Below, in pieces: positions 6,318 to 27,331 of a stretch of 64,000 bases of DNA (position 1 is the stretch's first letter; each line of letters begins with the position of its first letter). The notes below the pieces were generated by a model. The model made no database searches. It saw only the letters and a program-made list of their open reading frames with translations, and was not told the origin of the DNA. Made by a program: the position numbers and the translations under genes. Source of the DNA: Verrucomicrobiia bacterium. GTDB lineage: Bacteria; Verrucomicrobiota; Verrucomicrobiia; Palsa-1439. Location: assembly GCA_050010195.1 (NCBI GenBank), contig JBEKLM010000008.1, forward strand, positions 7,843-71,842, read 5' to 3'.

Positions 6318-6506
6318 CACGGTTTCAGGATAGGCAATATTGATGAGTCTCGTGCGACTCTGCCGCGTTGCGACCATCGGCGTGGCCGTGGAAAGGCCAG
6401 TTTCATTGCACTTTCACGACACAGGGATGTTTGCTGCCAGCTTGGTCGCTAGTGCTGTGCGTTTCGTAAATTCTACAAAGGTGACATTAATGTCTCGGAG
6501 ATTGCA

Positions 6507-10601: not shown

Positions 10602-12647
10602 TCACTTAGTTTTGTACGGTCCAAGAAATTTGTGGCCGTCGAAGTGCACGAGGTGGTCTGGCGTGTCCGCAATCCACACCTCTGTCTCCCAGGCGATGTC
10701 TGGTGCGAATTTCCTGAACGTCTCTCGGCTGAGAAATGCGGTTACGAAAATCAGTTCAGCCGTGCATTCTCGGCACAGACGTTCCAGTTCGACTAAACGG
10801 AGCGGAGAGATCGGGCCGGAGCTGTGAACCGCCTCTATTAAGAAGAGCCAGTTCTTCTCCTCTGAATAGGCAACAATGTCCGGTAGTTCTCCGTGTTCGA
10901 GTTTAAAGAACTTCAACGAGTCCAACTTTCTTTCGTTGCGGACTAGGTATCTGTTGGCGGCATCACCAACGTAAAGAACCTCGGCGCCAAATCCATACCG
11001 AGGGAGGAACACTTCGATTACTGCCTTTTGCAGAAGATTGTGCTCGCCCGGGCTGAAGTGAAGTGTCTTCCCGTCGGGTAGCTTTACCGGAACAAGCTCA
11101 AGGTTGCGCTCTGCCTTCAGGCGTTCGGCCAGCGTGGGCCTGCCGTCCATAAATTCCTCAATTTCCTCTAGCCAACCATCCTGGCCAAAAAACTTAATAA
11201 TCTCGATGAACTCCGGAGATAGCGAGTACCCGCGTGTTGGATCATTACGCGCAGCGGCTGGTTTATTTGCGCTTGCGATAACAATTCCGGCGACAACGAG
11301 CATTTTTAGGTCTTTACGACGAATATCATCGTAAGAGCCCTTCGAAATCTGTTCTTCGAAATGCTTATTCACATAATCAATGATATCGCGCGATTTCAGC
11401 GTATCTTTGCCCGTCCGCATACGAGCGTTGGGCCAGTCTGCGCTTCGCTTTACGTCGGCAACAGCTAGAAATGCCATCGCCATCCGTTCTAGTTCACGGG
11501 GCTTCAGACCCTCAAGGGGGATGCCCAATTTAGATAGCACGAGCAAGGCTTCATTGAATAATTTTGTCAGCCGTTGACTTTTTCCAGAGGAAGCGACGAA
11601 CTGAGGTGTTTTCATTTCTGAAGACTCCTTAAATTCCAGGGGCAGCGTGAATTGATCTGGCAGATTACGGTAAAGAATCTCAGCGGATTCGAGGCGGCGT
11701 TTTGAGGCTAGGTATGTGCGAATTGCACCCGCCAGATGCCACGCGAAAAGGGGCGGCACGGCGTTGCCCACTTGGTTGAACTGGCTGGTTTCCCCGCCCG
11801 CGAACTGAAATCCGTCAGGAAAGCTTTGCAGCCTAGCCGCCTCGTGGATAAGGATCCTCCGCCGTCGCCCGTCGGGCAGGCGAATTCGATGCATGTCCCC
11901 GGTTGCGCCGGCAAGGTTGCGGCAAGTCAATGTACGCGCGGGCTGATCGGGGTGAAGATCACGCGGGCGGACACAAAAAGAGGCGCGCTCATATTTAGCT
12001 ACGTATTCGTCCATGCTTGGCGTCAGAAACTTGGATTCAGGCGGCGCTTGGGACATAAGCCCGCCCAGGGCTTCGCCAGCCGTTACCTTCGCGGAGCATT
12101 CAATGGGGAATTGAAATTCACCTCGGTGGCCAACAACAATCACCCGCTCTCGGTTCTGCGGAACTCCGAAGTTTACGGCATTGAGGAGGCGCACCTCGAC
12201 AACATAATTGAGTGCGCGCAACGCGGCGATGACTTCATCGAAATACCACCGACTCCCGTAGAGCATCCCGCGAACATTCTCGAACATCCAGATGTCGGGC
12301 TGGACGCGCTTTATAGCGGAGATGAAGATAGGAAACCCGTCACGCGAATCCTTGAGCCCCAATTGGTAACCGCCCACGCTGAAAGGCTGGCACGGCGGTC
12401 CGCCGATTATGACCTTTGCTTGAGGATATATGGTGTCGACTGTGAGAGCGACTTGCTGGCAGTCGCCTTTGAGGTTTCGGTGATACGTATCGCAGGCGTC
12501 GCGATCTTGCTCATACCCCAGCGTCTTGAATCCCTGCGCCTCGAATCCAAGTGCAAGTCCGCCACAACCTGCGAATAGATCGAGAACCAAGGGTGAGCCG
12601 TTCTCCTTCGGCTTCAGCATTGTGTTGATCTTCTCTATGTAGGGCAT
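10602..12647 (-). CDS. DNA (cytosine-5) methyltransferase fused to a ~350-aa C-terminal restriction-endonuclease-like domain (BsuBI/PstI-type by recollection)
   Basis: m5C MTase motifs: I LVLDLFAGCGGLALGF, IV GGPPCQPFSVGG, VI ENVRGM, X FNQVGNAVPP. A further 350 aa follow, containing a PD…EEK element. GC is ~52%, against >60% in flanking genes. The start was chosen at the internal Met (MPYIEKI) to limit overlap with vsr. Confidence 0.75.
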   Translation of the reverse strand: MPYIEKINTMLKPKENGSPLVLDLFAGCGGLALGFEAQGFKTLGYEQDRDACDTYHRNLKGDCQQVALTVDTIYPQAKVIIGGPPCQPFSVGGYQLGLKDSRDGFPIFISAIKRVQPDIWMFENVRGMLYGSRWYFDEVIAALRALNYVVEVRLLNAVNFGVPQNRERVIVVGHRGEFQFPIECSAKVTAGEALGGLMSQAPPESKFLTPSMDEYVAKYERASFCVRPRDLHPDQPARTLTCRNLAGATGDMHRIRLPDGRRRRILIHEAARLQSFPDGFQFAGGETSQFNQVGNAVPPLFAWHLAGAIRTYLASKRRLESAEILYRNLPDQFTLPLEFKESSEMKTPQFVASSGKSQRLTKLFNEALLVLSKLGIPLEGLKPRELERMAMAFLAVADVKRSADWPNARMRTGKDTLKSRDIIDYVNKHFEEQISKGSYDDIRRKDLKMLVVAGIVIASANKPAAARNDPTRGYSLSPEFIEIIKFFGQDGWLEEIEEFMDGRPTLAERLKAERNLELVPVKLPDGKTLHFSPGEHNLLQKAVIEVFLPRYGFGAEVLYVGDAANRYLVRNERKLDSLKFFKLEHGELPDIVAYSEEKNWLFLIEAVHSSGPISPLRLVELERLCRECTAELIFVTAFLSRETFRKFAPDIAWETEVWIADTPDHLVHFDGHKFLGPYKTK

Positions 12648-13066
12648 CGCTTTGGCTTGCTGCCTTTGATGGCCTTCTTCAGGCGTGCAACAACCCGAGA
12701 CTCTCGTTTGAGTGAATGTTCCCATATACGAATGACGCTCCAGCCCTGTCTCCTCAATTTCCGGCTAACGGCACGATCGCGAGTTTGGTTCTTAACAATC
12801 TTATCCTCCCAATACAAGGCATTCTGTCTCGGTCGCTGGAGGTGCGATGAACAACCGTGCCAAAAGCAACCGTCCACGAATACCGCTAGACGGCGACTAG
12901 CGAAGATGAAATCTGGTCTGCCCGGCAGCGCTTGATTTCGTCGCCATCCGGTGATGCCGTTTGCCCGCATGATGGACATCAGTTTCAGCTCGGTGTGCTT
13001 GTTGCCGCTTGAACGAATGGCCGCCATTACATCGGAGCGCTTCCGCTTGGTAAATATGTCAGGCAT
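12635..13066 (-). CDS. vsr: Very-short-patch repair endonuclease Vsr
   Basis: FVDGCFWHGC motif and a ~140-aa Vsr-like sequence. The 3' end overlaps the m5C MTase gene. Confidence 0.9.
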   Translation of the reverse strand: MPDIFTKRKRSDVMAAIRSSGNKHTELKLMSIMRANGITGWRRNQALPGRPDFIFASRRLAVFVDGCFWHGCSSHLQRPRQNALYWEDKIVKNQTRDRAVSRKLRRQGWSVIRIWEHSLKRESRVVARLKKAIKGSKPKRCPT

Positions 13067-15073: not shown

Positions 15074-15102
15074 TTGACGTAGACGGGACGGCTTGATATA
15101 AT
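15074..15102 (+). promoter_or_regulatory. Near-consensus sigma70 promoter TTGACG-17-TATAAT upstream of the MotA-like gene
   Basis: Read directly: ttgacg tagacgggacggcttga tataat. Confidence 0.45.
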
Positions 15103-15139
15103 AAGGGCTGTAGGGTAACTGGCCATCTTGGGCGTGAGA

Positions 15140-15155
15140 CTGCATGAAAATGCAG
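15140..15155. promoter_or_regulatory. Perfect 16-bp palindrome ctgcatgaaaatgcag between that promoter and the MotA-like start codon (operator candidate)
   Basis: Inverted repeat CTGCAT-gaaa-ATGCAG read directly. Confidence 0.35.
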
Positions 15156-15201
15156 GAAAGGAAGGTTATTCCCTACAAAGTAAGCACGAAAATCGCTTGT
15201 C

Positions 15202-16944
15202 ATGAAGCAGGCGCGCGAGCGAGCCAACCAAACGATTATTCAACGAGGAGTAAATGACGCCATGGCGAATCAAGTAGTAGCATTCCCTGCCCACGAAAGG
15301 CCCCAGACCGAAATCAGCACCATCCAGATGGTCGGTATAGCCATTGTGATCACGCTGGGGGTATTTGGGATCGCGTATGTGGTCGGTGGGTTCCCGAAAG
15401 ACCTGTTTATGGGCCGGGACAAGATTCTCCCTGACCGGGTTTTTTTCCAAAGCTTGATTACGCTTGTGTGGGCGCTGTCGATGGCCAACGTCGTGTTGAA
15501 GATGGTGCGACTCAACAAAGAGCGGGCGGCGCTTGAGGAAGGCAGCGTGCCGGAGAATCTCGACATGAGCGATAAGGATGCGTTGATCGTGCAGTATGAG
15601 CGGATCAAGTTGCGCCCGGCGATGACGGAGAGCCTGGGGTTGACACGCATCGCGCGCGTGTTGGCGATGTGGATTAACACCGATGATTTCGAGCGCACGG
15701 CGCAGTACGCGCGTGAGCAAGCCGACCTCGACGCGGCCGAGTCCGATGCGACGTTTCGGCGTATCCGGTTGTTCATTTGGGCAATGCCGCTGCTGGGGTT
15801 CGTCGGTACCGTATACGGCGTGGCCAACGGGATCAGCGGTTTCTCGGGTTTTCTGCATCAGGCGAATGTGTCGATGGATCAAATCAAGGCGGCGATTGGT
15901 GACATCACGACCGGACTGGCGGTGGCGTTTATGTGTACGCTGCTGGGTCTGTTCACGGCCGGGTTGGCGGCGTTTCCCAATTTGATGGCGGAACGCCGGG
16001 AAGAGAAGATGCTGGCGGAGATCGAGGAACTGGTGGAGGACCGGCTGCTGTCGCGGATGCCATCGTCGGCCGGGGAAGAATCGAAGAGATTTCCCGTGGA
16101 ACAGATGGTGGCGGCGATCCGCGAAGGGATGGACGGACTGCAGACCCAATCGAAATTCCCCGTGGAGGAATTGGCGCAGGCCATCGACGCGGGGTTCCGG
16201 CGGTTGCCGAATCCGGATCGGTATGAAGAAGTGTTTTCCCGCGCGATCGCGAAGGCCGGCGATGTCATCAACCAGAAGTACGATGAATTCGCCGAGAATT
16301 ACGAACGACGCATTGGCGAACTGGGTTCCCAGCTCGGCGGCAAGCTGGAGGGCGTGGCCAGCAGCTTCAATAGCGGGACGCACCGGATCGTGTCCGAGTT
16401 GACCAAGACCCAGGAGCGCAACCTGGAGATTTACTCCAAGAACGAGCAGAAACTGGCGGAGAAGTTCGAGGAACTGACGGAACAATTGACCACCATCGCC
16501 AAGGAACAATCCGAGCAGTTCGGCGAAGCCCACGAAAATTACGTCGAGGCGATCCAGGAGTTGGACAAGAAGGAAATCGCGCGATTCGAGAAGATGGTCC
16601 AGGAGTTCAGCCAGCTCTCGGTACGGTTGGCCGACTCCTTCAAGCAGGCGGTCATGACGCTGGAGAATGCGTCCACGCGGTACAGTGAACGCATCCAGCA
16701 GTCGGTCGAGTCGTTGAACGAGCAACTGGAGAAAGTCACCCAGTTGGGCGCGGAGATCGACAAGGTGCTGCGGACCACACAGGCGATGGAGACGACGTTG
16801 CGTCAGGTGGGCAATTCGGATGAATTCCGCCAGACCCTGGCCAATTTGCGCAGTCACCTGAACACGAGCGATGAGTTGCTCAAGCAACTGTCGCGTCCGC
16901 GCAAGGTGATCTTCCAGGAAGCCCGGGGCGACGACAGCATGTAG
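15202..16944 (+). CDS. MotA/TolQ/ExbB-family proton-channel protein with a ~300-aa C-terminal coiled-coil tail
   Basis: Family signature (MPLLGFVGTVYGVANGISGF…IGDITTGLAVAFMCTLLGLFTAGLAAFPNLMAERR). This is followed by a long E/K/Q-rich helical region. Confidence 0.8.
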   Translation: MKQARERANQTIIQRGVNDAMANQVVAFPAHERPQTEISTIQMVGIAIVITLGVFGIAYVVGGFPKDLFMGRDKILPDRVFFQSLITLVWALSMANVVLKMVRLNKERAALEEGSVPENLDMSDKDALIVQYERIKLRPAMTESLGLTRIARVLAMWINTDDFERTAQYAREQADLDAAESDATFRRIRLFIWAMPLLGFVGTVYGVANGISGFSGFLHQANVSMDQIKAAIGDITTGLAVAFMCTLLGLFTAGLAAFPNLMAERREEKMLAEIEELVEDRLLSRMPSSAGEESKRFPVEQMVAAIREGMDGLQTQSKFPVEELAQAIDAGFRRLPNPDRYEEVFSRAIAKAGDVINQKYDEFAENYERRIGELGSQLGGKLEGVASSFNSGTHRIVSELTKTQERNLEIYSKNEQKLAEKFEELTEQLTTIAKEQSEQFGEAHENYVEAIQELDKKEIARFEKMVQEFSQLSVRLADSFKQAVMTLENASTRYSERIQQSVESLNEQLEKVTQLGAEIDKVLRTTQAMETTLRQVGNSDEFRQTLANLRSHLNTSDELLKQLSRPRKVIFQEARGDDSM

Positions 16945-16992
16945 GGTGAAAGCGTGCGCCGCACGACTCGATAATTTGGAGGCGACAACCTT

Positions 16993-17502
16993 ATGGCGCG
17001 ACGGAAACCTTACGAGAAGATCGACATCAATGTCGAACCGTTTCTGTCCATCATGGCGATCGTGCTAAAGTTGATCTCCTTGATTTTGGTGGTCATCGTC
17101 ATGCGCATCGCCATGAATCCCAATGCCAAACGGATTCCCACCTTCCCCGGATTATACAGCGGCCACGGCAATGAAATGAATCCCAAGATTCCTTCGTACA
17201 TCGATTGCCATCCGGATGGGTTGACGTTGTATTCCAGCGACGTCCCGGCTGGTGCGCAGGTACACTGGGACGATTTGCAGCGGCCGGATAATGCCGTGAA
17301 CCAACTTCTCGATAAAGTGCAGCAGCACAAGGACGACGAGTATATCGTTGTGATGGTGCGACCCTCGTCGCTGAAGTTTTACCGCACGGTACGCAATCTG
17401 ATCGAGAAACGTCCGATCGATGTGGGCTACGATGCGATTGATGCCAATTTTAAGGTCGACTGGGACGCGGCAGAGAAGGCGCTAGCCATTTCCCCGGACT
17501 GA
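16993..17502 (+). CDS. ExbD/TolR-like single-TM protein (weak similarity)
   Basis: MARRK… cytoplasmic N-terminus, one TM helix, then a periplasmic domain. The position directly after the MotA-like gene fits. Confidence 0.5.
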   Translation: MARRKPYEKIDINVEPFLSIMAIVLKLISLILVVIVMRIAMNPNAKRIPTFPGLYSGHGNEMNPKIPSYIDCHPDGLTLYSSDVPAGAQVHWDDLQRPDNAVNQLLDKVQQHKDDEYIVVMVRPSSLKFYRTVRNLIEKRPIDVGYDAIDANFKVDWDAAEKALAISPD

Positions 17503-17506
17503 CAAC

Positions 17507-18145
17507 ATGGCGCGGCGAAGAATACGGAAGGGCGAGCCGGAGATGCTGATCGTGTCGTTCTGCGACATCGTGACGATTACGACAGCGGCGCTTTTCTTTT
17601 GCTTGTTGGTCACTGTCCAGGAGTCGGTGAAAGTTCCTGTCTTCCGCCCGACGCCCCGTGCCAAAATAACATCCAAACAAGGCGTATTCTTCGAATGTCG
17701 GACAAATGAGTTATTTTTTGTCGATAAGGCCGGTTTGGACGATCAAGTGGAGAAACTGATGTCGACGTTGAATCCGGGAATTCGCGGTGGAGATCTTGAG
17801 TCGTTTCTTAAAGCTCTTCAGGGACAAGAAGTCGGGAACGCATATTACAGGGTGGATCCACGGTATTTGTTGGTCGGGAAGATGGGGTTGGAGGTGCGGA
17901 CCGGGATCGCTGGGGAAATGATAACGGAGCTGGATGACCCCAATAGCAAGTTTCAAGCGATCCTTTCTCAGTTGGACAAGAGGCAGCAATACATTGCGTT
18001 TTTGGTCAGAGATGATAGCTTTACCATATTTCGCAAGGCACGGCAGATCGCCGACACGGCTGGGTTCGACACGGGCTGGGAACTGCTCGGGATTGATGAA
18101 CCAATCAAGTTCGGGGAGGGTGGCACGGCGATCGCCACCCAATAG
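17507..18145 (+). CDS. ExbD/TolR/MotB-like single-TM protein with a conserved TM aspartate
   Basis: MARRR… then a TM helix with D (LIVSFCDIVTITTAALFF, compare ExbD LIDVVF). No OmpA/PG-binding motif was recognised. Confidence 0.5.
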   Translation: MARRRIRKGEPEMLIVSFCDIVTITTAALFFCLLVTVQESVKVPVFRPTPRAKITSKQGVFFECRTNELFFVDKAGLDDQVEKLMSTLNPGIRGGDLESFLKALQGQEVGNAYYRVDPRYLLVGKMGLEVRTGIAGEMITELDDPNSKFQAILSQLDKRQQYIAFLVRDDSFTIFRKARQIADTAGFDTGWELLGIDEPIKFGEGGTAIATQ

Positions 18146-18148
18146 GGA

Positions 18149-19180
18149 TTGTTTATGGCTGGAAGCACAAGCGGCAAAGGGAAGGGGAGAGGGACAAAAG
18201 CCAATGTAATTGTCTGGACTCTTCTGGTCGTATTGATTCTGACAGCAGGGGTTTTGGCCCTCAATGTGACGCAGCGATTCCACCGTGTCGTCCAAGAGAC
18301 GAATCAGGTGCGCACGGTTGTCCAGGAAGCCGTCAAGCGCCAGGAAATGATCGTCAAGGCGCCCGCCCGCAAGGAGTTCTCCGCGGCGTTTCTCCAAATG
18401 GCGTTCGGCGATAACCCGCAGCTCTTGGATGAAATCAAAGGGTCTCTTAGCAAAGCGCTCGGTGAAAATCCAACACTGGCCCAAGGCGACGTCGCCATGA
18501 TGCTGGTGACGTACCGCGCGGAGGGCGAGTTGCGCGACGTGGCGATCCATATTTTTGGCAATCTGGTGCCCGAAAAGCTCCCGGCATTCAGTTCCGAAGG
18601 CTACTGGAAATCGCAACTCCCCGATAGTTTCTTCAAGATGGGGCAATCGATGCTGGCCACCTTGGGGCGGGAAGTCGTGATTTTGGCCAGCCCGGAAGCC
18701 GAGAAGCGTCAACGGGATCTGCTCGAGGCGATCCTGAACAACCGATACGACACGGTCCAGAATTACCTCCACGAGCCGGTTTCGTTTATTGCGGTCATTC
18801 CCGAACCGGGGTTGTTGTTCACGGATCGATTTCGGCCGTACATGGCGGCGGCGCTGGTCAAAGGAAAGATTTCGCTCGATGAAGGGCGTGCGGAAATGGT
18901 TGCGCTGAGCATGGATCCTCAGAAAGCCCAGGAGCTGGCGCAATTGCTCTCCGACACGCGCATGATGGCCGTGGGCATCGCTCGCGTTCGATACGGCAGT
19001 TCGGTGGCCGAATCGGCTCTCGAACAGTTGTCCCGCGCGCAGATTGTTGCGGACGGACCCGCCGTGAAGATGAGCGTGGTGCTGCCGTCGGATGTAATCG
19101 AACGCGGTCTGCCCCGGGTGATTCGCGCGTTGGCCAAGGGCATCGGCCGGATCCAACGCGGCCCTGGTTATCCCAGCTAG
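18149..19180 (+). CDS. Membrane-anchored hypothetical protein
   Basis: N-terminal TM helix (VIVWTLLVVLILTAGVLALNV), 343 aa, tightly spaced in the same operon. Confidence 0.55.
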   Translation: MFMAGSTSGKGKGRGTKANVIVWTLLVVLILTAGVLALNVTQRFHRVVQETNQVRTVVQEAVKRQEMIVKAPARKEFSAAFLQMAFGDNPQLLDEIKGSLSKALGENPTLAQGDVAMMLVTYRAEGELRDVAIHIFGNLVPEKLPAFSSEGYWKSQLPDSFFKMGQSMLATLGREVVILASPEAEKRQRDLLEAILNNRYDTVQNYLHEPVSFIAVIPEPGLLFTDRFRPYMAAALVKGKISLDEGRAEMVALSMDPQKAQELAQLLSDTRMMAVGIARVRYGSSVAESALEQLSRAQIVADGPAVKMSVVLPSDVIERGLPRVIRALAKGIGRIQRGPGYPS

Positions 19181-19216
19181 GGTGTGAATCCTCGCCTCTG
19201 TGCACTCACGAGGAAG

Positions 19217-21145
19217 ATGACAACACAACAAGTCAAGCGGGTGGTCCTCGGGGCGGTAAGCCTGCTCGTGCTGTCCTGGCCGTCGCTCGCCCAAGAGGCG
19301 GCGTCGACTCCCGCCGATCCCAAACTCAAAGCCGCCTATCAACACCTCCACTTTGACCGCCTGTACCCGGCGGAGGCCGTCGCGTTCATTCAGGGCAAGC
19401 TGCAGAACGCGCCCCGCGCCGTGGATGTTCTCGCCGATGTGGCGTCGGATCAACGCCCCGATGTGCGCGTTCTGGTGGCCATGCTCCTGGGAGAACTCGG
19501 CGAGCCCGACGGCGCCAAGACACTCTGGCATCTGACCCGTGACGACGTGGAATTCGTGCGCACGACCGCCGCCGGGTCCCTGGTGCGGCTGTCGAGCACG
19601 ACGCCCATCGTGAATTCCTGGGAAGGCCTCAAGGACCCCCGCCCCGATGTCCGCAAATTCACCGCGGCTCTCCTCGGTCAGGCATCCGATAAATCGGCCG
19701 AGCCCGCGTTGATCGAGGACATCCGCGACCCGGACGCTTCGGTTCGGGCCGAAGTGGTTGGCTCGCTCGGCTCGTGCGGGACCAGCGCTTCCGTTCCCTC
19801 GCTCGTCGAGTCGTTGCGGGACGATCGCGCGCTGGTTCGGATCGCCGCCGCAAGTTCGCTGGCGCACTTCGCCGATCCGTCGTCGATTCCACCGCTCGTG
19901 GCCGCCTTGAACGACTCCGACTGGCATGTTCGCGCGGCGGCCATCATGTCGTTGTCGTCGCTGGCTGGCAATGACAAGGAGCGCGTCGCCAAGATCATCG
20001 ACCCCATCGCCGCCCGCCTTCAAGATGACCAGTACGCCCTCGTTCGCGACCGCGCTGCCGACGCCCTCGCCCGCCCCAATGACGAAAAGGCCGTCGCGGC
20101 GCTCGTGCAGGCGGTTGTTTCCGAGAATCGCGAAGCCCGGTTTCATGCCCACGAAGCGATCATCAGTTGCCAGGCGGTTTCCGCGCTCCCGCAGTTGGCG
20201 AAATACGTTCACCATGCAAACCGCGATGTCCGCGAAAAGATCGTCCGCATCTTCGGCGAGATCGGCGGGGGCGACCAGGTCCCCTACGTCACCGACGCGC
20301 TGAACGACCCCGATCCGGTCGTTCGTCTCGCCGCCGTCCAGGCGCTCCGCAAACTTCAGGGCGCGGGCATGCTCGAATCGCTCGAGACCAAGTGTACCGA
20401 CGCCGACCCCAACGTCCGCGCCGAGTCCGCCCGCGCTCTCGGCACCATCGGCGATCGCAAAGCCGTGCCGAGGCTGGTCGAACTGCTCCACGACGACAAT
20501 GGGTTTGTCCGCAGCGCCGCCGCCGAGTCGCTCGGTCAACTCGGGGATCGCACCGCCACCGCCGACTTGATTCAGGTGCTGACGGGCGAGAAACGTCACA
20601 CGGCTCAGGGCTCGGAGCAGGAGGGTCTCGTCATCTCGGCACAATCGGGCGTGTTGCCAGGAATTGCCAAATTGAAACTCGTCGAAGAAAAAATCAACGC
20701 CACCAAGGCCCTCGGGGATATCCGTGATCCCGTCGCCGTGGACGCTTTGATTGAGAATGGACTGAAGGCCGAAGACCCGGGGCTCCGCGCGGAGTCCGCC
20801 GTGTCGTTGGGCAAGATCGGCGAGGAGCGTGCGGTCAAACCGCTGGAAGCCACCGTGCGCCCCTACTACGACACCGCCCCCGAGGACAGCCAGGGCGTGA
20901 CCATTTCGTCCGGGCAGGTCGACGAAACGATACGCCTCCGCAAGGAAAAGGAATCCCGCGTCCGCGCCTCCGTCGCCTGGGCGCTCGGCCAGATTGCCGA
21001 TCCGTCCGCACGGGAAATCCTCCGACGCGCCGTGAACGACGAGAACAGCCTCGTCCGCGATGCCGCCGCGGAAGCCCTCGCCAAGATCGCCGAGAAACAG
21101 GAACGCGTCGCCGAAGGCCAGCCCACCGCCCAATCCGCGCACTGA
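19217..21145 (+). CDS. Secreted HEAT-repeat (PBS-lyase-type) protein
   Basis: Signal peptide and more than 10 HEAT-like repeats (…DPDVRAEVVGSLGSCG…, …DSDWHVRAAAIMSLSSLAG…). Confidence 0.8.
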   Translation: MTTQQVKRVVLGAVSLLVLSWPSLAQEAASTPADPKLKAAYQHLHFDRLYPAEAVAFIQGKLQNAPRAVDVLADVASDQRPDVRVLVAMLLGELGEPDGAKTLWHLTRDDVEFVRTTAAGSLVRLSSTTPIVNSWEGLKDPRPDVRKFTAALLGQASDKSAEPALIEDIRDPDASVRAEVVGSLGSCGTSASVPSLVESLRDDRALVRIAAASSLAHFADPSSIPPLVAALNDSDWHVRAAAIMSLSSLAGNDKERVAKIIDPIAARLQDDQYALVRDRAADALARPNDEKAVAALVQAVVSENREARFHAHEAIISCQAVSALPQLAKYVHHANRDVREKIVRIFGEIGGGDQVPYVTDALNDPDPVVRLAAVQALRKLQGAGMLESLETKCTDADPNVRAESARALGTIGDRKAVPRLVELLHDDNGFVRSAAAESLGQLGDRTATADLIQVLTGEKRHTAQGSEQEGLVISAQSGVLPGIAKLKLVEEKINATKALGDIRDPVAVDALIENGLKAEDPGLRAESAVSLGKIGEERAVKPLEATVRPYYDTAPEDSQGVTISSGQVDETIRLRKEKESRVRASVAWALGQIADPSAREILRRAVNDENSLVRDAAAEALAKIAEKQERVAEGQPTAQSAH

Positions 21146-21814
21146 TTCCGTGCGGCTGGATGGCTTCGTCCGTCATTTTTGCCTCTCCCATGGCCCTCCG
21201 GATCCCCTAAACGAACCAAATTCTGGCTTCGTTCTTGGCCTTCCCATTTGCAGACTTCCACGCTGGCCTATGCAGAATTGGCTTCGTTTGGCAGAAAGCG
21301 CGTTTTCACGCAGCTCTCTGCCTCCCCAGTTCACCCTGCTTGCCCTGAACAGCGTCGAAGGGTAGCCGCGTCCCGTGTACGCGGACCGGTCATCCGCCCG
21401 GCCACCCATCCGCCATCCCTCATTGTTAGACCGTCTTCCGTCGCACCTCATTACCTCATTTCAAAGATCCAACCCCGCCAGCCCGGCGCCATCACCAGGC
21501 CGGCCCCAACACCACTAAAAACCCATCCATCACATGCGCGTATAGATAAACACGATACAACGTCAGATCGAAAAAGAGATAGATGGCCAACCATCCCGCA
21601 ACGGGGGGGCGAGCGGCTCGGGCCACACCCGGACGAAACGGGCACGCTTGTGTGCCAGGCGCGCAAAACCCGGCGACACTTCCCAGACATATAAGCCTTG
21701 ACTGAGTAACAGCATTTTGCTATGCCACTCCACGGGGTTGTCTTGGGGGTCATTCCACGTGTTCTCGACTCGCGCCGGTCTGGGCACCAACAGTTGTTGG
21801 ACAAGGAGTCGATC

Positions 21815-22147
21815 ATGAACCTCAGTGAGATAGTTGCGGTGGCACTGTTCCTGACCGTCTTGGGCGTTGTCCCCATTCTCTTGATAGGAATTGTCGGCGG
21901 TCGCCAATCTACCGATCCGGGTCTTCTGGAATGCCCTCACTGCGGGGCTTACAACCATAAAACCAAAGAGCACTGCTACTGCTGTGGCTTTGGCTTTGTC
22001 CTCCCGCAATCGGACAGGCCGGACCCTGCCCTGATTCAGCGGGTGAAGCAGGCAGATGCCAGCAGAATGAGACGGGAAGCCGAACCTCAAATTCTCCGAG
22101 TAGTCGAGGATGAGCCACAGCGCGCAGAGAAAGCGAGTGACCCGTGA
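21815..22147 (+). CDS. Small membrane protein with a C-terminal zinc ribbon
   Basis: AAGGAG RBS. TM helix IVAVALFLTVLGVVPILLIGIVGG. CPHCG…CYCCG. Confidence 0.45.
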   Translation: MNLSEIVAVALFLTVLGVVPILLIGIVGGRQSTDPGLLECPHCGAYNHKTKEHCYCCGFGFVLPQSDRPDPALIQRVKQADASRMRREAEPQILRVVEDEPQRAEKASDP

Positions 22148-22175
22148 AAGCCGGACGAGGAGGACCAATGATTTT

Positions 22176-22457
22176 ATGAACCATCGCAGCCTGTTAAGGG
22201 ACGCGAACCCCCGAGTTGAAACTGCTTCCCAAACAACCCTTCCACACCGGCAGTTGACCGACCAGCATCGGAAGAGCCTTTCCAAGTCCATGAAGAAGAT
22301 GTGGGCCAGGCGGGGCGGACTGTCGAATGAACATCGCCAGAAGATTTCGGTTTCCGTGGTGAAGTGGTGGGCCAAGCGGGACAGAGGCAAAGCCCGCGGG
22401 AGCGATCGAGCCGTGTTAGCAACGGCGAACCCGCTGAAGGACGTTGGGGAGAGATAG
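22176..22457 (+). CDS. Small protein with two NUMOD3-like DNA-binding motifs (a homing-endonuclease-associated module)
   Basis: TDQHRKSLSKSMKKMWARR and SNEHRQKISVSVVKWWAKR match the NUMOD3 pattern (S-x-E-H-R-x-K-I-S). The patch has lower GC. Confidence 0.4.
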   Translation: MNHRSLLRDANPRVETASQTTLPHRQLTDQHRKSLSKSMKKMWARRGGLSNEHRQKISVSVVKWWAKRDRGKARGSDRAVLATANPLKDVGER

Positions 22458-22495
22458 CCGGTGCCCGTTACGGCATCGAAATGGAGGGCGGTCCC

Positions 22496-23911
22496 ATGAA
22501 ATGGTTACTCGCAACGGGGGGGTTGCTGGGTGTGCTGTTCCTGATGTCGGCATCTGGGGATGACCCACGCGATGCTCGATCTTCTGTGGATGTCGCTGTC
22601 GAATTACGGAATCAAGATGCGGCATTGTCTCTGTTGCTGGAGGCCTTTCGACAAATTCAAAGCTCGGTGATTCAATCAGACTACGACTCACGGATCCGTG
22701 CCGTAGGCTCCTCAAGGGACACGGAAGTTCGTCGCACGGTGGCCATTCTGGCCGACATCGAGCGCTACCTTCGGGGCCGGAAACTTGAGAAACAAGTGGG
22801 GAGTTTATTGACGGCCTACGAGTACGCGCGAAAGGCCGACGAACGCGAGGCCGGTGTCATCGTTCCGAGCGGTGTCGACCTTGGAACCGCAGCCAATACA
22901 CTGAAAGAGTTTCGTTTCATTCAGGGGACTCCTCCCGTCCTGGAAGTCAGTGTCGAAACGCCTGTTTTTAGTTCAGGCCCTGCGGCATCGAGTGAGGCTG
23001 CGCGTCCGGCCGCACTGCAGAAGTATCTGACGCTTCTGAGCGGCCTTTATACGAACGATGCCATACTTGTCGGAGCGGTCCAATCACTGCTGGACGAACG
23101 CGCGCAGCAAACCGATTCGGTCCAGGCCGGTCCCGCTTTGGTTGCGATTAGCTATCGAACAGTGGCCGGTAACACGAGTAATGTTGTCGTTCAACTATTC
23201 GACCCTCCGAAGCAAACAACAGAGCGTGTCGTGGCAAATACGCGGTTGGCAGCGTCACGCCTTGGCCCGGAGATTTTAGGCCCCATCGACGAATGGTTGA
23301 ACCTGCTCACGGAAACGCACATTAATTACCTTGGTCCGGAGAAGGAAGTATTCATGCGCCAGCGCGCATTTCATTTGGCACTCCAGGCCGACCTGACATT
23401 AATGCGCGAGCAAACAGTTGAACCACTGCACCTGGTCATCTTACTGACAGATCCGGAACCGCTTCTTCCGCAGTGTTTGTCACGCCGAGTCCGCTCGGCA
23501 ATCGTCGAAGCCGATCTGGCGTATGGAGAATGGCAATGCCGGGTTCATCTCATGACCGCTGAGAATGATACCGCGCAACAAGTGGAATTGCTTCTGGCGA
23601 GTTGGCGCGACATGGCCGTGAGCGTGCTCGATATTTACGGGAGTTCGGCCACAAATCCCTCTGCTCGCCGCGCATTGGAAACTGGCACCCTTACGGTTCA
23701 AGGGAACGAAGTTCTTGTCACTGGCTCGGTCCCAAGCAGCTTGGGCCTGCGAGCAGTCACAAAACTGACCCGCTGGGCAGTCGAAGAAGCCGCTTGGGAA
23801 GATGAGCCAAAGATGGTCACCATCTGCCAGGGTGGGAAAATTCAGCAGGTCCGGGCACTTGATCTTTCCGCATGCCTGGCCAAAGGCGCTCACCTCGGGC
23901 CTTGTCGCTGA
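22496..23911 (+). CDS. Secreted hypothetical protein, paralog 1, with a Cys-containing C-terminal tail
   Basis: Signal peptide MKWLLATGGLLGVLFLMSASG. The C-terminal 250 aa align with the next gene. The tail is …HLGPCR. Confidence 0.65.
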   Translation: MKWLLATGGLLGVLFLMSASGDDPRDARSSVDVAVELRNQDAALSLLLEAFRQIQSSVIQSDYDSRIRAVGSSRDTEVRRTVAILADIERYLRGRKLEKQVGSLLTAYEYARKADEREAGVIVPSGVDLGTAANTLKEFRFIQGTPPVLEVSVETPVFSSGPAASSEAARPAALQKYLTLLSGLYTNDAILVGAVQSLLDERAQQTDSVQAGPALVAISYRTVAGNTSNVVVQLFDPPKQTTERVVANTRLAASRLGPEILGPIDEWLNLLTETHINYLGPEKEVFMRQRAFHLALQADLTLMREQTVEPLHLVILLTDPEPLLPQCLSRRVRSAIVEADLAYGEWQCRVHLMTAENDTAQQVELLLASWRDMAVSVLDIYGSSATNPSARRALETGTLTVQGNEVLVTGSVPSSLGLRAVTKLTRWAVEEAAWEDEPKMVTICQGGKIQQVRALDLSACLAKGAHLGPCR

Positions 23912-24172
23912 TCGTGCCATTGGCGGGTGTTCGGCGAGCTTTTCGATCCCCTCTCTGCCCCGCAGGAACCCGCCCGCCTCAAAATCCAAAGCAGGACATG
24001 CTCCGCCCGCAAGCCTGGGTTGACTTTGCGGGTCGATGGTCTATCTTGAACGTGGCGTTCGGTGTTGGGGTCTTGCCGAAAACGGGCTGTTCTCGGCCCG
24101 TTTCGTGTTGCGATTTTCGCGGAATCCCCCACAGAGAAGACTGGCACCGAACTTGCATATTTGAGAGCCGAA

Positions 24173-25327
24173 ATGAACAAGACATCTAACATCCAACTCG
24201 CCGGAACGCTCTGCCGGCGCCTTGGTTCCATTGGTCTTTCCCTGTTGGCGGTAATCTCTCTGTCAATGCGTTGCCGCGCGGCGGCACTCGCACCGGTTTC
24301 ACCGACTCCGATGCCGAACGCCGTGGTCGCACCATCTCCCGCCACGTCCATTTCCAGCGCGCACTCCACGAAACCGGCGTCCACAATCGCCCCGGCAAAT
24401 TACACGGAATGCCTCACGCTGTTGCAGGGAACCGACCGGATCAGCCCTGTTCTCGTCGAAGCCGTCGCCCAACTCTTGAACCATCCCGAAAACGCTTCCC
24501 AGGCCGTCCCCCAGAGGCCGCCCTCGCTCCTGGCCGTGACCTGGCGCGAGAACGCGGGTCAGGTGCGCGACATCGTCGTCCAAGCGTACTACGAACCGCT
24601 GGGCGGAGATGTCAGCACTTTGAACGCCGATGGTTATGTCCGTGCCCGGTTGGGTGGCGAATTGTCCAGTTCCGCGAACCAACTTCTTGGCCTGATGTAC
24701 GAGCAGGTCGTGTACTTCGGGCCCAAGAACCAGGTGGCACTTGAACAGCGCGCCTTCCAGGCGGCCATCAACGGCGACATGACACTTCTGCGGGAGCAAA
24801 CGGTCGATCCGTTGCGTCTCCTCGTCGTGATGCCGCACGGCGGCACGTTTCTCCCGTCGAGCCTTCGGTCCCGCGTCCGCGGCATGGTTCTCAATGCCAC
24901 GCTGGACTTTGGAACCTGGAGCGGTCAAATCGGCATGGTGACCAGTGATGGCGAGTCGGCGGAACAGGTCGGCACCATCGTGTCCGCCTGGCGCGATATG
25001 GCCGTGTCACTGGCCGATACGTTCGCCAGTTACAGTTCGGGAAAACAACTTCGTGACGCGCTCCAGGCGAGCACCGTTCAGGTCGTGGCCAATCGCGTGT
25101 TGGCCTCCGCCTCGGTCGACTCCCGCACGATCGTGCGCGCCTCGAAGGAAATCACCGGCCACGGCGGCGGTTGCCCGCCGGGCGGCGTCTGCTCGAAGGA
25201 CACCGTGGCGGTGTGCCACAAGATCAATAGTACACGCGAGGAGACTGTGTGCGTCGCCCCGACGGCCGTCGCAGCCCACCTGGCGGCGGGGGACCACTGC
25301 GGCCCGTGCGAGGGCAATGGCCCGTAA
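24173..25327 (+). CDS. Secreted hypothetical protein, paralog 2, with a Cys-rich tail
   Basis: Signal peptide. It is collinear with paralog 1 (…FGPKNQVALEQRAFQAAINGDMTLLREQTVDPL…). The tail is GGGCPPGGVCSK…VCVAP…HLAAGDHCGPCEGNGP. Confidence 0.65.
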   Translation: MNKTSNIQLAGTLCRRLGSIGLSLLAVISLSMRCRAAALAPVSPTPMPNAVVAPSPATSISSAHSTKPASTIAPANYTECLTLLQGTDRISPVLVEAVAQLLNHPENASQAVPQRPPSLLAVTWRENAGQVRDIVVQAYYEPLGGDVSTLNADGYVRARLGGELSSSANQLLGLMYEQVVYFGPKNQVALEQRAFQAAINGDMTLLREQTVDPLRLLVVMPHGGTFLPSSLRSRVRGMVLNATLDFGTWSGQIGMVTSDGESAEQVGTIVSAWRDMAVSLADTFASYSSGKQLRDALQASTVQVVANRVLASASVDSRTIVRASKEITGHGGGCPPGGVCSKDTVAVCHKINSTREETVCVAPTAVAAHLAAGDHCGPCEGNGP

Positions 25328-25434: not shown

Positions 25435-26481
25435 TTGATTCTGAAAACACCGTGGTACCGTCCTGTTCCGGCCGTTGTCATTTGGTTCCTCTGTGGAGCC
25501 TCGCTGGGGGTTTTGCACATCGCCGCGGCCGAAACCGACTCATCCAAACAGGAATTGGGACGGCTCGCGGCCTGGCTCCAATCCCCGGACGAAGGCGAGC
25601 GCGAGGACGCCATCCGCGAACTGGCCAACCTGCACACCCCGGAAGCACTCTCCCTGATGCTGCGGGGGCTTCAAGACACCAACGCCGCCGTTCGCGCGTC
25701 GGCCGCGTGGAGCCTGGTTCTGGCCCCGGCGGGCACGGATACAATCAACGCCCTGCGCAACGTGCTGGCCGATGACAACGACCGCGTGCGCGCCTCGGCG
25801 ATCTGGACGCTCGCCCACATTGGCGGCAAGGCGGTCCTCCCGGATGTCGTGCGCCTGGCCACCAACGACGCCTCCGGCATCGTGCGCTTTCGCGCGGTGT
25901 GGGGCCTGGCATTTATTCACGACAAATCCGCGTTGCCGGTCGCCATTCATGCCCTCGGCGATTACAATAACTCCGTTCGCGAACGGTCCGCGCTTCTGGC
26001 CATCGACTCCATGGCCGACAAATCTTCCGTCATCCCGCTCCTGCTCACGCAACGCGCCCATGTCCTGCCCGCGACGCGACGCATTGTGATGTATCTCCTT
26101 GCCAAATATGGCGATGCGTCCGTCGTTCCGGCGTTGACCGACGGCCTGAAGGACCCGGACGCGCTGGTGCGTGGGGAAGCGGCCATTTCGCTCGGAAAAC
26201 TTCACGCCCGAAAAGCGTTGGGCGCACTCCAGCCGGCCTTGCAGGACCCCGACGATCATGTCCGCGGTTCGGCGGCGTACGGTGTCGGATTGATGGGCGA
26301 CCCGGCCGGCGTGGCGCTCTTGCGTCCGCTCCTGAAGGACGACAGTGCCTTCGTGCGCGCCGTCGCGGCGGATTCCTTGCAAACGCTCGGCGACCGGACC
26401 GCCCAACCGCCCGAAGGTTTCAAGTCCTCGGAGTTGTTCACGTTCCCCATCTTCAGCCCCGAGCAGAAAGACTTGTACTGA
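25435..26481 (+). CDS. HEAT-repeat (PBS-lyase-type) protein. The start is uncertain (TTG proposed)
   Basis: Repeats …EDAIRELANLHTPEALSLMLRGLQDTNAAVRASAAWSL… An N-terminal hydrophobic segment is present. Confidence 0.65.
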   Translation: MILKTPWYRPVPAVVIWFLCGASLGVLHIAAAETDSSKQELGRLAAWLQSPDEGEREDAIRELANLHTPEALSLMLRGLQDTNAAVRASAAWSLVLAPAGTDTINALRNVLADDNDRVRASAIWTLAHIGGKAVLPDVVRLATNDASGIVRFRAVWGLAFIHDKSALPVAIHALGDYNNSVRERSALLAIDSMADKSSVIPLLLTQRAHVLPATRRIVMYLLAKYGDASVVPALTDGLKDPDALVRGEAAISLGKLHARKALGALQPALQDPDDHVRGSAAYGVGLMGDPAGVALLRPLLKDDSAFVRAVAADSLQTLGDRTAQPPEGFKSSELFTFPIFSPEQKDLY

Positions 26482-26545: not shown

Positions 26546-27331
26546 TCACGCTCTTACCGGCGGACAAATCCCGTTCGGCGAGTTCCGCACGAATTCGATA
26601 AACTCCCGCGCTTCGGACGTGGTGAACGCCCCGTCCCGTGACGCTTCCGCCAACGCTTGTGTGCCGTTCATCCCCGAGAGGTAGAATAGCTGGTAAAGCT
26701 TTTTCAGTTCCCCCAGCGCTTCCCGGGAAATCTTCATCCGTCGCAGGCCGACCAGGTTCAACGCGTGGATCTCGTTGCGCTCCGCCGCCAGCGTGAACGG
26801 CGGCACGTCCATCGACACCCGCGCATTCCCGGAAAACATCGCCAGCCGTCCCACGTGCGTGAATTGGTGGATCACCACGCCACCCGAGATGAATGCGCGG
26901 TCGCCCACGTGCACGTGGCCCGCCACCAGCGCGCAATTGCAGATGATCACATTGTTGCCGATTACACAGTTGTGGCCAACATGCGCCGTGGCCATGATGT
27001 AACAATCGTTGCCGATGACCGTCGCGCTCTCGGGTTCCGTCCCGCGGTGGATGTTGCAGTACTCGCGGAACACGTTGCGGTCGCCGATGCGCAAGTACGT
27101 CCGCCGTGACCGGTCAAACTTCAAATCCTGCGGTTCATGCCCGATCACCGCGCCCATGTGGATTTCGTTGTCGCGTCCGATCTCCGTGTGGCCTGTCAGA
27201 TACGCATTTGCCCAAATCCGCGTTCCCGCACCGACCTTCACGTGCTCCTCGATGACCACATTCGGCCCCACCTCGACGCTCGAATCGAGTTGCGCCTTCG
27301 GACTGATAATGGCTGTCGGATGAATCGACAT
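26546..27331 (-). CDS. lpxA: Acyl-ACP–UDP-N-acetylglucosamine O-acyltransferase LpxA
   Basis: Left-handed beta-helix hexapeptide repeats and LpxA N-terminal conservation (MSIHPTAIISPKAQL…). Confidence 0.9.
   Translation of the reverse strand: MSIHPTAIISPKAQLDSSVEVGPNVVIEEHVKVGAGTRIWANAYLTGHTEIGRDNEIHMGAVIGHEPQDLKFDRSRRTYLRIGDRNVFREYCNIHRGTEPESATVIGNDCYIMATAHVGHNCVIGNNVIICNCALVAGHVHVGDRAFISGGVVIHQFTHVGRLAMFSGNARVSMDVPPFTLAAERNEIHALNLVGLRRMKISREALGELKKLYQLFYLSGMNGTQALAEASRDGAFTTSEAREFIEFVRNSPNGICPPVRA

Follow-up and report, generated by a model that had tools for sequence, protein, structure and literature searches.

A conserved Verrucomicrobiia operon that may encode an ion-driven MotA/ExbB/TolQ-class motor serving the cell envelope

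What work is done by an operon that opens with a gene for a MotA/TolQ/ExbB-like channel subunit carrying a long cytoplasmic tail, and that continues with genes for two different ExbD-like proteins and for periplasmic proteins of its own kind? Ion-driven motors of the 5:2 class drive flagella, uptake that depends on TonB, maintenance of the envelope by Tol-Pal, gliding, type 9 secretion and the Zorya defence. The operon considered here lies in a 64,000-nucleotide (nt) stretch of a Verrucomicrobiia genome (contig JBEKLM010000008.1), which we call the window and to whose positions all coordinates refer. A first inspection of this DNA, made from its letters alone and hereafter called the sequence-only reading, had described a five-gene operon. 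All five open reading frames (ORFs), g1 to g5, are present as it stated; they span 15202-21145 on the + strand, are tightly packed (gaps of 48, 4, 3-9 and 3-36 nt) and are syntenic in more than 50 related contigs. From sequence comparisons we propose, with middling confidence, that the operon specifies a motor in the inner membrane, driven by ions and belonging to the MotA/ExbB/TolQ "5:2" class, which serves the cell envelope in a Tol/Ton-like manner.

The core of the g1 protein belongs, as had been noticed at first sight, to the MotA/TolQ/ExbB family, of which it is a divergent member. It passes the gathering cut-off of the Pfam model MotA_ExbB (PF01618; 27.3 bits, cut-off 22.9, residues 160-267), and the same model also matches many g1 homologues and distant relatives of the system. 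When g1 was aligned by hhalign with Escherichia coli TolQ (identical to Protein Data Bank (PDB) chain 8odt_A; E 5.6e-5), residues T183 and T226 fell on the TolQ lumen threonines T145 and T178, and both are invariant in 16 sequences. Four transmembrane (TM) segments are predicted, with the N-terminus inside, and the distribution of positive charges puts both the C-terminus and the large loop on the cytoplasmic side.

The cytoplasmic C-terminal tail comprises about 315 amino acids (aa; residues ~245-560) and is conserved over its full length in about 200 homologues. It is not of low complexity, contains the invariant motifs AIDAGFRRLPNPDRYEEVF, FPVEELAQAIDAGFRRLPNPDRYEEVF and SDEFRQTLANLR..SDELLKQLSRPRK, and has its proline and glycine breaks confined to the first third. 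Its hydrophobic residues recur with a period of 3.62 residues that stays in phase over residues 300-545 (~245 residues); the power of this periodicity was reached by none of 2,000 shuffled sequences, and there was none at 3.5. This pattern speaks for a long helical rod that is straight or slightly right-handed, and the lack of power at 3.5 led us to reject a heptad coiled coil. The "~300-aa coiled-coil tail" of the sequence-only reading is thus long and helical as described, but not a coiled coil of the heptad type. The tail is present in every member of the g1 family that we examined (495-620 aa), and its invariant motifs are kept even in L040 (related loci are given as L numbers, individual proteins as P numbers), where g3 is only about 31% identical. 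In the g1 orthologue P0099, an insert of about 84 residues made of 11-residue repeats (QQMTEQTQRVG-like) lies in the tail at alignment columns 416-499, and a 40-residue insert is found at the same position in P0104, P0117 and P0120.

The g2 and g3 proteins are both single-pass, and only g3 has an aspartate in its TM helix, in agreement with the initial description of two ExbD-like proteins of which one keeps this residue. In g3 the motif SFCDI, with D20 in the TM helix, is invariant, and throughout the g3 family this aspartate stands in a D-I/V context resembling that of ExbD. In g2 the aligned position is occupied by S19 in the motif FLSIM, which is invariant in 22 orthologues; the g2-like genes of the distant loci L035, L041 and L042 likewise encode a serine there, whereas L038 has an aspartate. 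The periplasmic domains of the two proteins are paralogous (hhalign 96.9%, E 2e-10). Neither matched any Pfam family at E<=0.1, OmpA-like and other peptidoglycan (PG)-binding domains included, and no match of PG-binding type was obtained for them in Pfam, NCBIfam or PADLOC, which bears out the earlier remark that neither has an obvious domain of this type.

The likeness of g2 and g3 to ExbD appears weak but specific. The cut-off of the Pfam ExbD/TolR model (PF02472) is not reached by g2 or g3 of the window; two of the 22 g3 orthologues (best E 0.086) and one of 31 diverse members (E 0.0039) gave a match to the model, and none of the g2 orthologues did. A few Joint Genome Institute (JGI) annotations name g3 homologues ExbD. 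Aligned by hhalign with E. coli ExbD (PDB 6tyi_Y), g2 gave E 1.3e-4, with INVEPFLSIM placed on INVTPFIDVM, and g3 gave E 0.02, both alignments covering the TM helix and the first strand. When E. coli ExbD was compared with every ORF of the window and of 37 related loci, only g3 orthologues were matched. Among 177,635 PDB sequences, a profile built from the 31 diverse g3 proteins matched only two chains, both ExbD (E 0.012 and 0.15), with D20 of g3 falling on ExbD D25. Profiles of g1, g2 and g3 from the close clade returned nothing useful from the same PDB sequences, and ExbD was reached only by the wider g3 profile.

Among metagenome representatives, g2-type and g3-type periplasmic domains are fused in single chains in P0365, P0366, P0364, P0413 and P0444, and because they occur within one polypeptide, we argue that the two domains pair. 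The fusion proteins are soluble or lipoprotein-like and lack TM helices, and the order of the domains is reversed in P0444. P0391 carries a DUF2092 (LolA-like) domain and P0410 carries ankyrin repeats. A LolA-like link of the fusions was not relied on, as only P0391 passes the cut-off and P0364 stays below it. C72 of g2 (17206-17208) and C64 of g3 (17696-17698) lie at corresponding ends of their first periplasmic strands (YIDC in g2, FECR in g3), and most distant members have "EC" at this site. An intermolecular disulfide between g2 and g3 is conceivable.

About 200 full-length homologues of g1, tail included, were found down to 50% identity, and the few that carry a taxon label come from Verrucomicrobia metagenome-assembled genomes (MAGs). 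A scan of one genome per species yielded 33 loci, nearly all in MAGs of Verrucomicrobiota/Verrucomicrobiia that come from soil, bog, peat and lakes, and the order and sizes of g1 to g5 were kept in all of those with enough sequence (30+). A metagenome scan added 80 loci, with the same gene order in about 40 contigs; on one of these loci, the 142-kb contig L047, g3 is 100% identical. Viral contigs yielded no relative. The conservation of gene order is far beyond chance.

Beyond this clade, searching 1.84 billion representatives with the g3 profile returned at least 1,252 clusters (50% identity) at E<=1e-3. On the contigs of distant members, a long MotA_ExbB protein (again 495-620 aa) is always followed by a g2-like and then a g3-like gene. 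These three genes persist together down to 28-42% identity of g3, with g4 and g5 replaced: the triad is followed by an LppM-domain protein in L035, a TPR protein in L046, nothing in L042 and L044, and a TM-anchored vWA protein in L038, which has an S-x3-H-x6-L pattern in its TM helix, as in TonB, and a DxSGS motif resembling a metal-ion-dependent adhesion site (MIDAS). By sequence, the conserved core is the triad g1-g2-g3, a large family without Pfam annotation. In L099 (1206-7181), two such triads lie head to head on opposite strands and are followed by a SurA-like gene.

Downstream of the triad, g4 has a single predicted N-terminal TM segment, as expected from its description as a 343-aa TM-anchored protein; the helix contains an invariant tryptophan and no histidine. 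A fold search with a model of g4 found no known fold, and no TonB_C, TolA-, TolB- or Pal-type Pfam match was obtained in g4 or g5. The 653-aa periplasmic HEAT-repeat protein of the sequence-only reading is g5, which matches HEAT_2 (E 3e-90). In 23 orthologues, its N-terminus varies, is hydrophobic and resembles a signal peptide, and the mature part behind it is conserved. Both g4 and g5 are specific to the clade, being absent from the distant triad loci.

Clustering of the flanking ORFs grouped two downstream ORFs, g6a (22364-23911) and g6b (24062-25327), with g4. They are 33% identical to each other (E 1e-48) and are secreted, not anchored. jackhmmer placed g6a in the g4/g6 family, a g4 profile aligned with g6b over 201 columns (hhalign 97.3%, E 2.2e-11), and the g4 and g6 family profiles aligned with each other over 243 columns (99.1%, E 5e-19). 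Neither g6a nor g6b matched Pfam, and the g6 family profile had no meaningful match among PDB sequences. The C-terminus of g6b carries the motif V.VCH...T.CV...AVAAHLAAGD.CGPC. Across g6, the C-terminal Cys/His motif reads V.ICH..G.T..V...AV.AHLAHGD..GPC (window 25180-25327) and is tandemly duplicated in L016, L023 and L033. The next gene, g7, matches HEAT_2 (E 1.8e-44).

In ten relatives, g6 orthologues lie on the same strand 46-224 nt 3' of g5, and a g5-like gene follows g6 in L047, L054, L056, L065, L066 and L068. In the window, g5 and g6a are separated by a variable stretch of 1.2 kb and a terminator-like site. Because g6 directly follows g5 in many relatives, the functional unit is probably one of six or seven genes, and from this arrangement it probably extends past g5 to g6a, g6b and g7 (22.4-26.5 kb). 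The products of g2 to g7 are all predicted to face the periplasm. The original notion of a five-gene unit is thus borne out as far as the synteny of the five genes goes, but the core is smaller and, with g4 paralogues downstream, the unit is probably larger. The stretch between g5 and g6a (21146-22363) varies among close relatives and includes a small ORF (21722-22147) that codes for one TM segment and for a motif CxxC...CxxC like that of a zinc ribbon, and that is also found in L005 and L006.

The genes around the operon provide the only functional lead. In the close clade, the arrangement is DUF502-RecO, then g1 to g5 (with g6 and g7), then lpxA and a thiF-like gene, both on the opposite strand; in 18 of the 20 close-clade loci with enough sequence, lpxA is found 0-6.7 kb downstream. 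The RecO and DUF502 genes upstream are closed by a terminator-like site of their own. In the distant clade, eight loci have fabZ-lpxA directly behind the triad and on its strand, and in ten a gene for a SurA-like chaperone adjoins the triad. In L035, the triad is flanked by YidC and BamA-Skp, and in distant loci genes for a secretin and for an ATPase and platform protein of the type II secretion system (T2SS)/type IV pilus (T4P) type come after fabZ-lpxA. The repeated linkage to lpxA, fabZ and surA, seen across 28-42% identity of g3, points to the outer membrane.

If the operon encodes a motor as we propose, g1 would form the channel ring, and the N-terminal helices of g2 and g3 would sit inside it as a mixed pair, with a presumed stoichiometry of 5:1:1 and the protonatable aspartate contributed by g3 only. 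Proton flow past the two g1 threonines and Asp20 of g3 would make ring and axle turn relative to each other, with either as the moving part. Through their related periplasmic domains g2 and g3 would pair up and, directly or by way of g4, g6 and the HEAT scaffolds g5 and g7, would act on the periplasm or the outer membrane by force or by a conformational signal. The g1 tail would be a straight helical rod, about 25-37 nm long if continuous, that either braces the ring against a partner in the cytoplasm or transmits movement inward.

Several observations weigh against this proposal. The g1 profile found no match among PDB sequences at E<=1. We know of no characterised precedent for a single aspartate per presumed axle pair, which could mean a role other than rotation. 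The g4 protein has neither the TM histidine of TonB and TolA nor a known fold, and the evidence from gene neighbourhood is correlative. Finally, although the tail belongs to the core features of the family, the neighbouring genes include none for a cytoplasmic partner, and the output could therefore be cytoplasmic.

The Tol and Ton systems are among the nearest known parallels. Like TolQR and ExbBD, the window has a channel of the MotA/TolQ/ExbB family with both lumen threonines and a single-pass partner (g3) with a TM aspartate, a small periplasmic domain of putative alpha/beta fold and no OmpA-like domain; as in Tol/Ton, an N-terminally anchored periplasmic protein comes next in the operon, and there is a linkage to outer-membrane functions. 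Unlike them, g1 has four predicted TM segments followed by the tail, the axle would be a D/S heteropair instead of a D/D homodimer, and the similarity in sequence is only marginally detectable. The operon also has no TonB/TolA C-terminal domain, no SHLS motif, no TolB and no Pal. The downstream genes do not supply the missing Tol-Pal parts, as g6a and g6b have no Pfam match and g7 is a HEAT protein; in g4 and g5, too, no Pfam match to TolA, a TolB beta-propeller, Pal or CpoB was obtained. That the operon does not match the canonical Tol-Pal, ExbBD-TonB or flagellar sets, as the sequence-only reading had stated, agrees with our finding no TonB, TolA/TolB/Pal, MotB-type PG-binding or flagellar match in it. 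From MotAB and PomAB it also differs in lacking an OmpA-like domain and in having RecO, DUF502, LpxA and ThiF, not flagellar genes, as neighbours.

Two further groups of motors were considered. AglR-AglQ-AglS, the Myxococcus gliding motor, likewise has a single TolQ-like subunit and a pair of TolR-like subunits that differ from each other; however, AglQ and AglS both keep the aspartate, AglR is not known to have a long tail, and the Glt partners are absent from the window locus. The Agl motor is also mentioned in PMC12505986. GldLM and PorLM differ in that GldL-type subunits have two TM segments instead of the four of g1 and work with a long periplasmic partner of the GldM type, and no GldL, GldM, PorL or PorM chain was matched by the g1, g2 or g3 profiles among PDB sequences. 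A related architecture in the literature is that of operons from Planctomycetes-Verrucomicrobia-Chlamydiae (PVC) bacteria that contain a gene for a TPR protein, a tolQ-like gene, two heterologous tolR-like genes and a vWA transducer tethered by a TM helix (Tichowtungia family, Mol Biol Evol 2025, PMC12204202). This variant was put forward, without experiments, as a new force transducer in PVC bacteria, and its authors suggested a role in gliding (PMC12204202). The window operon shares with it the succession of a tolQ-like and two different tolR-like genes (g1, g2 and g3) followed by a membrane-tethered periplasmic protein, a helical-repeat protein in the cluster and a Verrucomicrobia/PVC host, and L038, a relative of the window triad, carries such a vWA protein. 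The window operon itself differs in having no TM-helix-tethered protein with a vWA fold and an SHLS motif.

The main rival to an envelope-serving motor holds that the work is done in the cytoplasm: g2 to g7 would anchor the axle to the wall or the outer membrane, as MotB and ZorB do, and the ring of g1 with its rod would rotate so as to move a cytoplasmic partner encoded elsewhere or to signal to it. We regard this as unlikely, although the tail speaks for it, being present in every family member that we examined, with its invariant motifs kept in L040, coherent in its 3.62 periodicity over about 245 residues, and varying in length by the insertion of 11-residue repeats, as expected of a rod; a rotating tail of right-handed form, moreover, has its precedent in ZorA (PMC11946911). 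However, no operon variant that we saw encodes a cytoplasmic partner, no PG-binding domain was recognised in g2 or g3, and the variable accessory genes are all periplasmic. Those accessory proteins (g4 to g7) would be a periplasmic relay if the motor energised surface motility, adhesion or a secretion or pilus machine in the manner of AglRQS-Glt or GldLM/PorLM, an explanation that we find quite unlikely. AglQ and AglS would be a precedent for its two different TolR-like subunits, and the secretin and T2SS/T4P-type genes beyond fabZ-lpxA in distant loci, together with the gliding role suggested for the related vWA variant (PMC12204202), are consistent with it; but fabZ-lpxA lies between the secretin and the triad, the close clade lacks the secretin, neither the window nor the close clade has Glt, Gld, Por or pilus genes in or beside the operon, and the g1 profile matched neither GldL nor PorL in the PDB.

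A tailed motor that detects envelope damage, as an anti-phage sensor of the Zorya kind, is a further explanation, and the sequence-only reading had found g1 reminiscent of ZorA-type tailed stators. The resemblance holds for the architecture only: ZorA also joins a MotA-like ring subunit to a long cytoplasmic helical tail with a hydrophobic periodicity above 3.5, and its tail is right-handed, with L250, L254, L258 and L261 at 4,4,3 spacing (PMC11946911). The tail of g1 is shorter (~315 against ~500 aa) and starts with conserved motifs interrupted by proline and glycine, and g2 and g3 lack the C-terminal PG-binding domain of ZorB. The NCBIfam ZorA models gave g1 weak scores of 13.5-25.7 bits, with cut-offs of 100-500 (ZorA_2: 25.7 against 100); the PADLOC ZorA matches sit in the tail, where the reversed sequence scores nearly as well (24 bits against 29 forward). 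No effector of the ZorC, ZorD, ZorE, ZorF or ZorG type was found in the operon, g4 having no PADLOC match and g5 only domain-level matches to HEAT (E 3.2e-35 to 3.1e-10). A restriction-modification gene with vsr lies 2 kb upstream in the window, but such genes are absent from relatives such as L003; the operon occupies one fixed chromosomal site among housekeeping neighbours in more than 50 contigs, not a variable defence island, and viral contigs lack it. Identity with Zorya was rejected on the score cut-offs, the reversed-tail control, the fixed context and the lack of viral copies, and a Zorya-like sensor is highly improbable. Improbable, too, is a static membrane scaffold or channel derived from a motor, in which the loss of the g2 aspartate would mark a decayed proton path. 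The single aspartate per pair and the extreme divergence from all solved motors would fit such decay, but the invariance of the g1 pore threonines and the g3 aspartate over deep divergence is hard to explain without selection on an ion path, and the g2 serine is itself invariant, not decayed.

An envelope-serving motor of the MotA/ExbB/TolQ type is a kind of system that is already known, and a sister architecture was noted in 2025 (PMC12204202). In the literature that we searched, we found neither its five-to-seven-gene form, nor a housekeeping motor with such a tail among its core features, nor a conserved single-Asp heteropair, nor the g4/g6 domain family, nor the linkage to lpxA, fabZ and surA. 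The locus would add a widespread motor family, whose g2, g3, g4 and g6 proteins have no Pfam family, and would join features so far found apart, namely a long cytoplasmic tail like that of ZorA and a periplasmic relay like that of Tol/Ton, in a housekeeping context. The Asp/Ser heteropair offers a natural test of whether rotation needs two proton-binding sites, and the linkage to lpxA, fabZ and surA is a testable lead to the outer-membrane biology of PVC-type bacteria, whose envelope machinery is poorly known.

A bolder reading, to which we give rather little credence, is that the triad represents a class of trans-envelope machine that has had no name so far and that occurs in Verrucomicrobiota and further lineages, and in which a proton-driven ring, a rod of 25-37 nm and a mixed Asp/Ser axle mechanically couple the cytoplasm to the biogenesis or maintenance of the outer membrane, that is, to the handling of lipid A/lipopolysaccharide (LPS), outer-membrane proteins or lipoproteins. 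If this were true, a single proton site per pair would entail a stepping cycle unlike that of MotAB, ExbBD or TolQR, and lineage-specific periplasmic adaptors (g4/g6 with HEAT, vWA, LppM-like or TPR proteins) would be fitted to one power unit.

Table 1. Positions of the genes and signals of the operon and its downstream region in the window.
Feature	Position	Strand	Remarks
Sigma-70-type promoter, TTGACG-17-(TG)TATAAT	15074..15102	+	11/12 matches, extended -10 TG
Short inverted repeat in 5' leader, CTGCAT-GAAA-ATGCAG	15140..15155	+	Read directly
Conserved leader motif CGCTTGTCATGAAGCAGGCGCG	15194..15215	+	~50-70 nt upstream of g1 start
g1, MotA/TolQ/ExbB-family channel subunit with cytoplasmic helical tail	15262..16944	+	
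g2, ExbD-like, single-pass, Ser replacing TM Asp (FLSIM)	16993..17502	+	
g3, ExbD-like, single-pass, invariant TM Asp (SFCDI, D20)	17507..18145	+	
g4, N-terminally anchored periplasmic protein, putative new alpha/beta domain	18155..19180	+	ORF opens at TTG 18149
g5, exported HEAT-repeat protein	19217..21145	+	ORF opens at GTG 19184
Terminator-like hairpin and T-run 3' of g5	21157..21182	+	Consensus match only; hairpin 21157-21172
g6a, secreted g4-domain paralogue with C-terminal Cys motif	22496..23911	+	ORF opens at 22364
g6b, secreted g4-domain paralogue	24173..25327	+	ORF opens at 24062
g7, shorter second HEAT-repeat protein, hydrophobic N-terminus	25435..26481	+	Start approximate; ORF opens at 25249
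lpxA, conserved downstream neighbour outside the operon	26546..27331	-	Hexapep + Acetyltransf_11

The signals ahead of the operon were also compared among relatives. The near-consensus promoter reported at first is indeed there, and in an alignment of the upstream DNA of ten relatives its -35 element TTGAC is invariant and its -10 element conserved. What had been called a perfect 16-bp palindrome in the leader proved to be an inverted repeat with arms of 6 bp and a spacer of 4 nt. Its arms co-vary in some relatives (GGCT-GAAA-AGCC in L012, CGGCT-GGAA-AGCCG in L013), and it has no Rfam match. Closer to g1, 15 relatives with as little as about 63% identity of g1 share the motif CGCTTGTCATGAAGCAGGCGCG almost unchanged. 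This motif may be an operator or other regulatory site. It gave no match in Rfam and no consensus structure with RNAalifold, and a structured RNA in the leader was rejected for these reasons.

The start of g1 was revised from the ATG at 15202, given initially, to that at 15262 (560 aa), because the stretch 15202-15261 carries 1-nt indels in close relatives, the ATG at 15202 is gone in L012 and L013, an invariant GAGGAG lies upstream of the ATG at 15262 (10-15 relatives aligned), and homologues are 558-560 aa long. From the lengths of their orthologues, g4 probably starts at the ATG at 18155 and g5 at that at 19217.

Elsewhere in the window, a 707-aa ORF upstream of the operon (10602-13066, - strand) encodes a C5 cytosine methyltransferase fused to BsuBI/PstI-type restriction endonuclease domains, and is followed, with an overlap of about 90 nt, by a gene for a Vsr mismatch endonuclease. 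Further upstream (3801-8519, + strand) lie two large adjacent ORFs, 838 and 670 aa long, in which PKD and He_PIG Ig-like domains occur.

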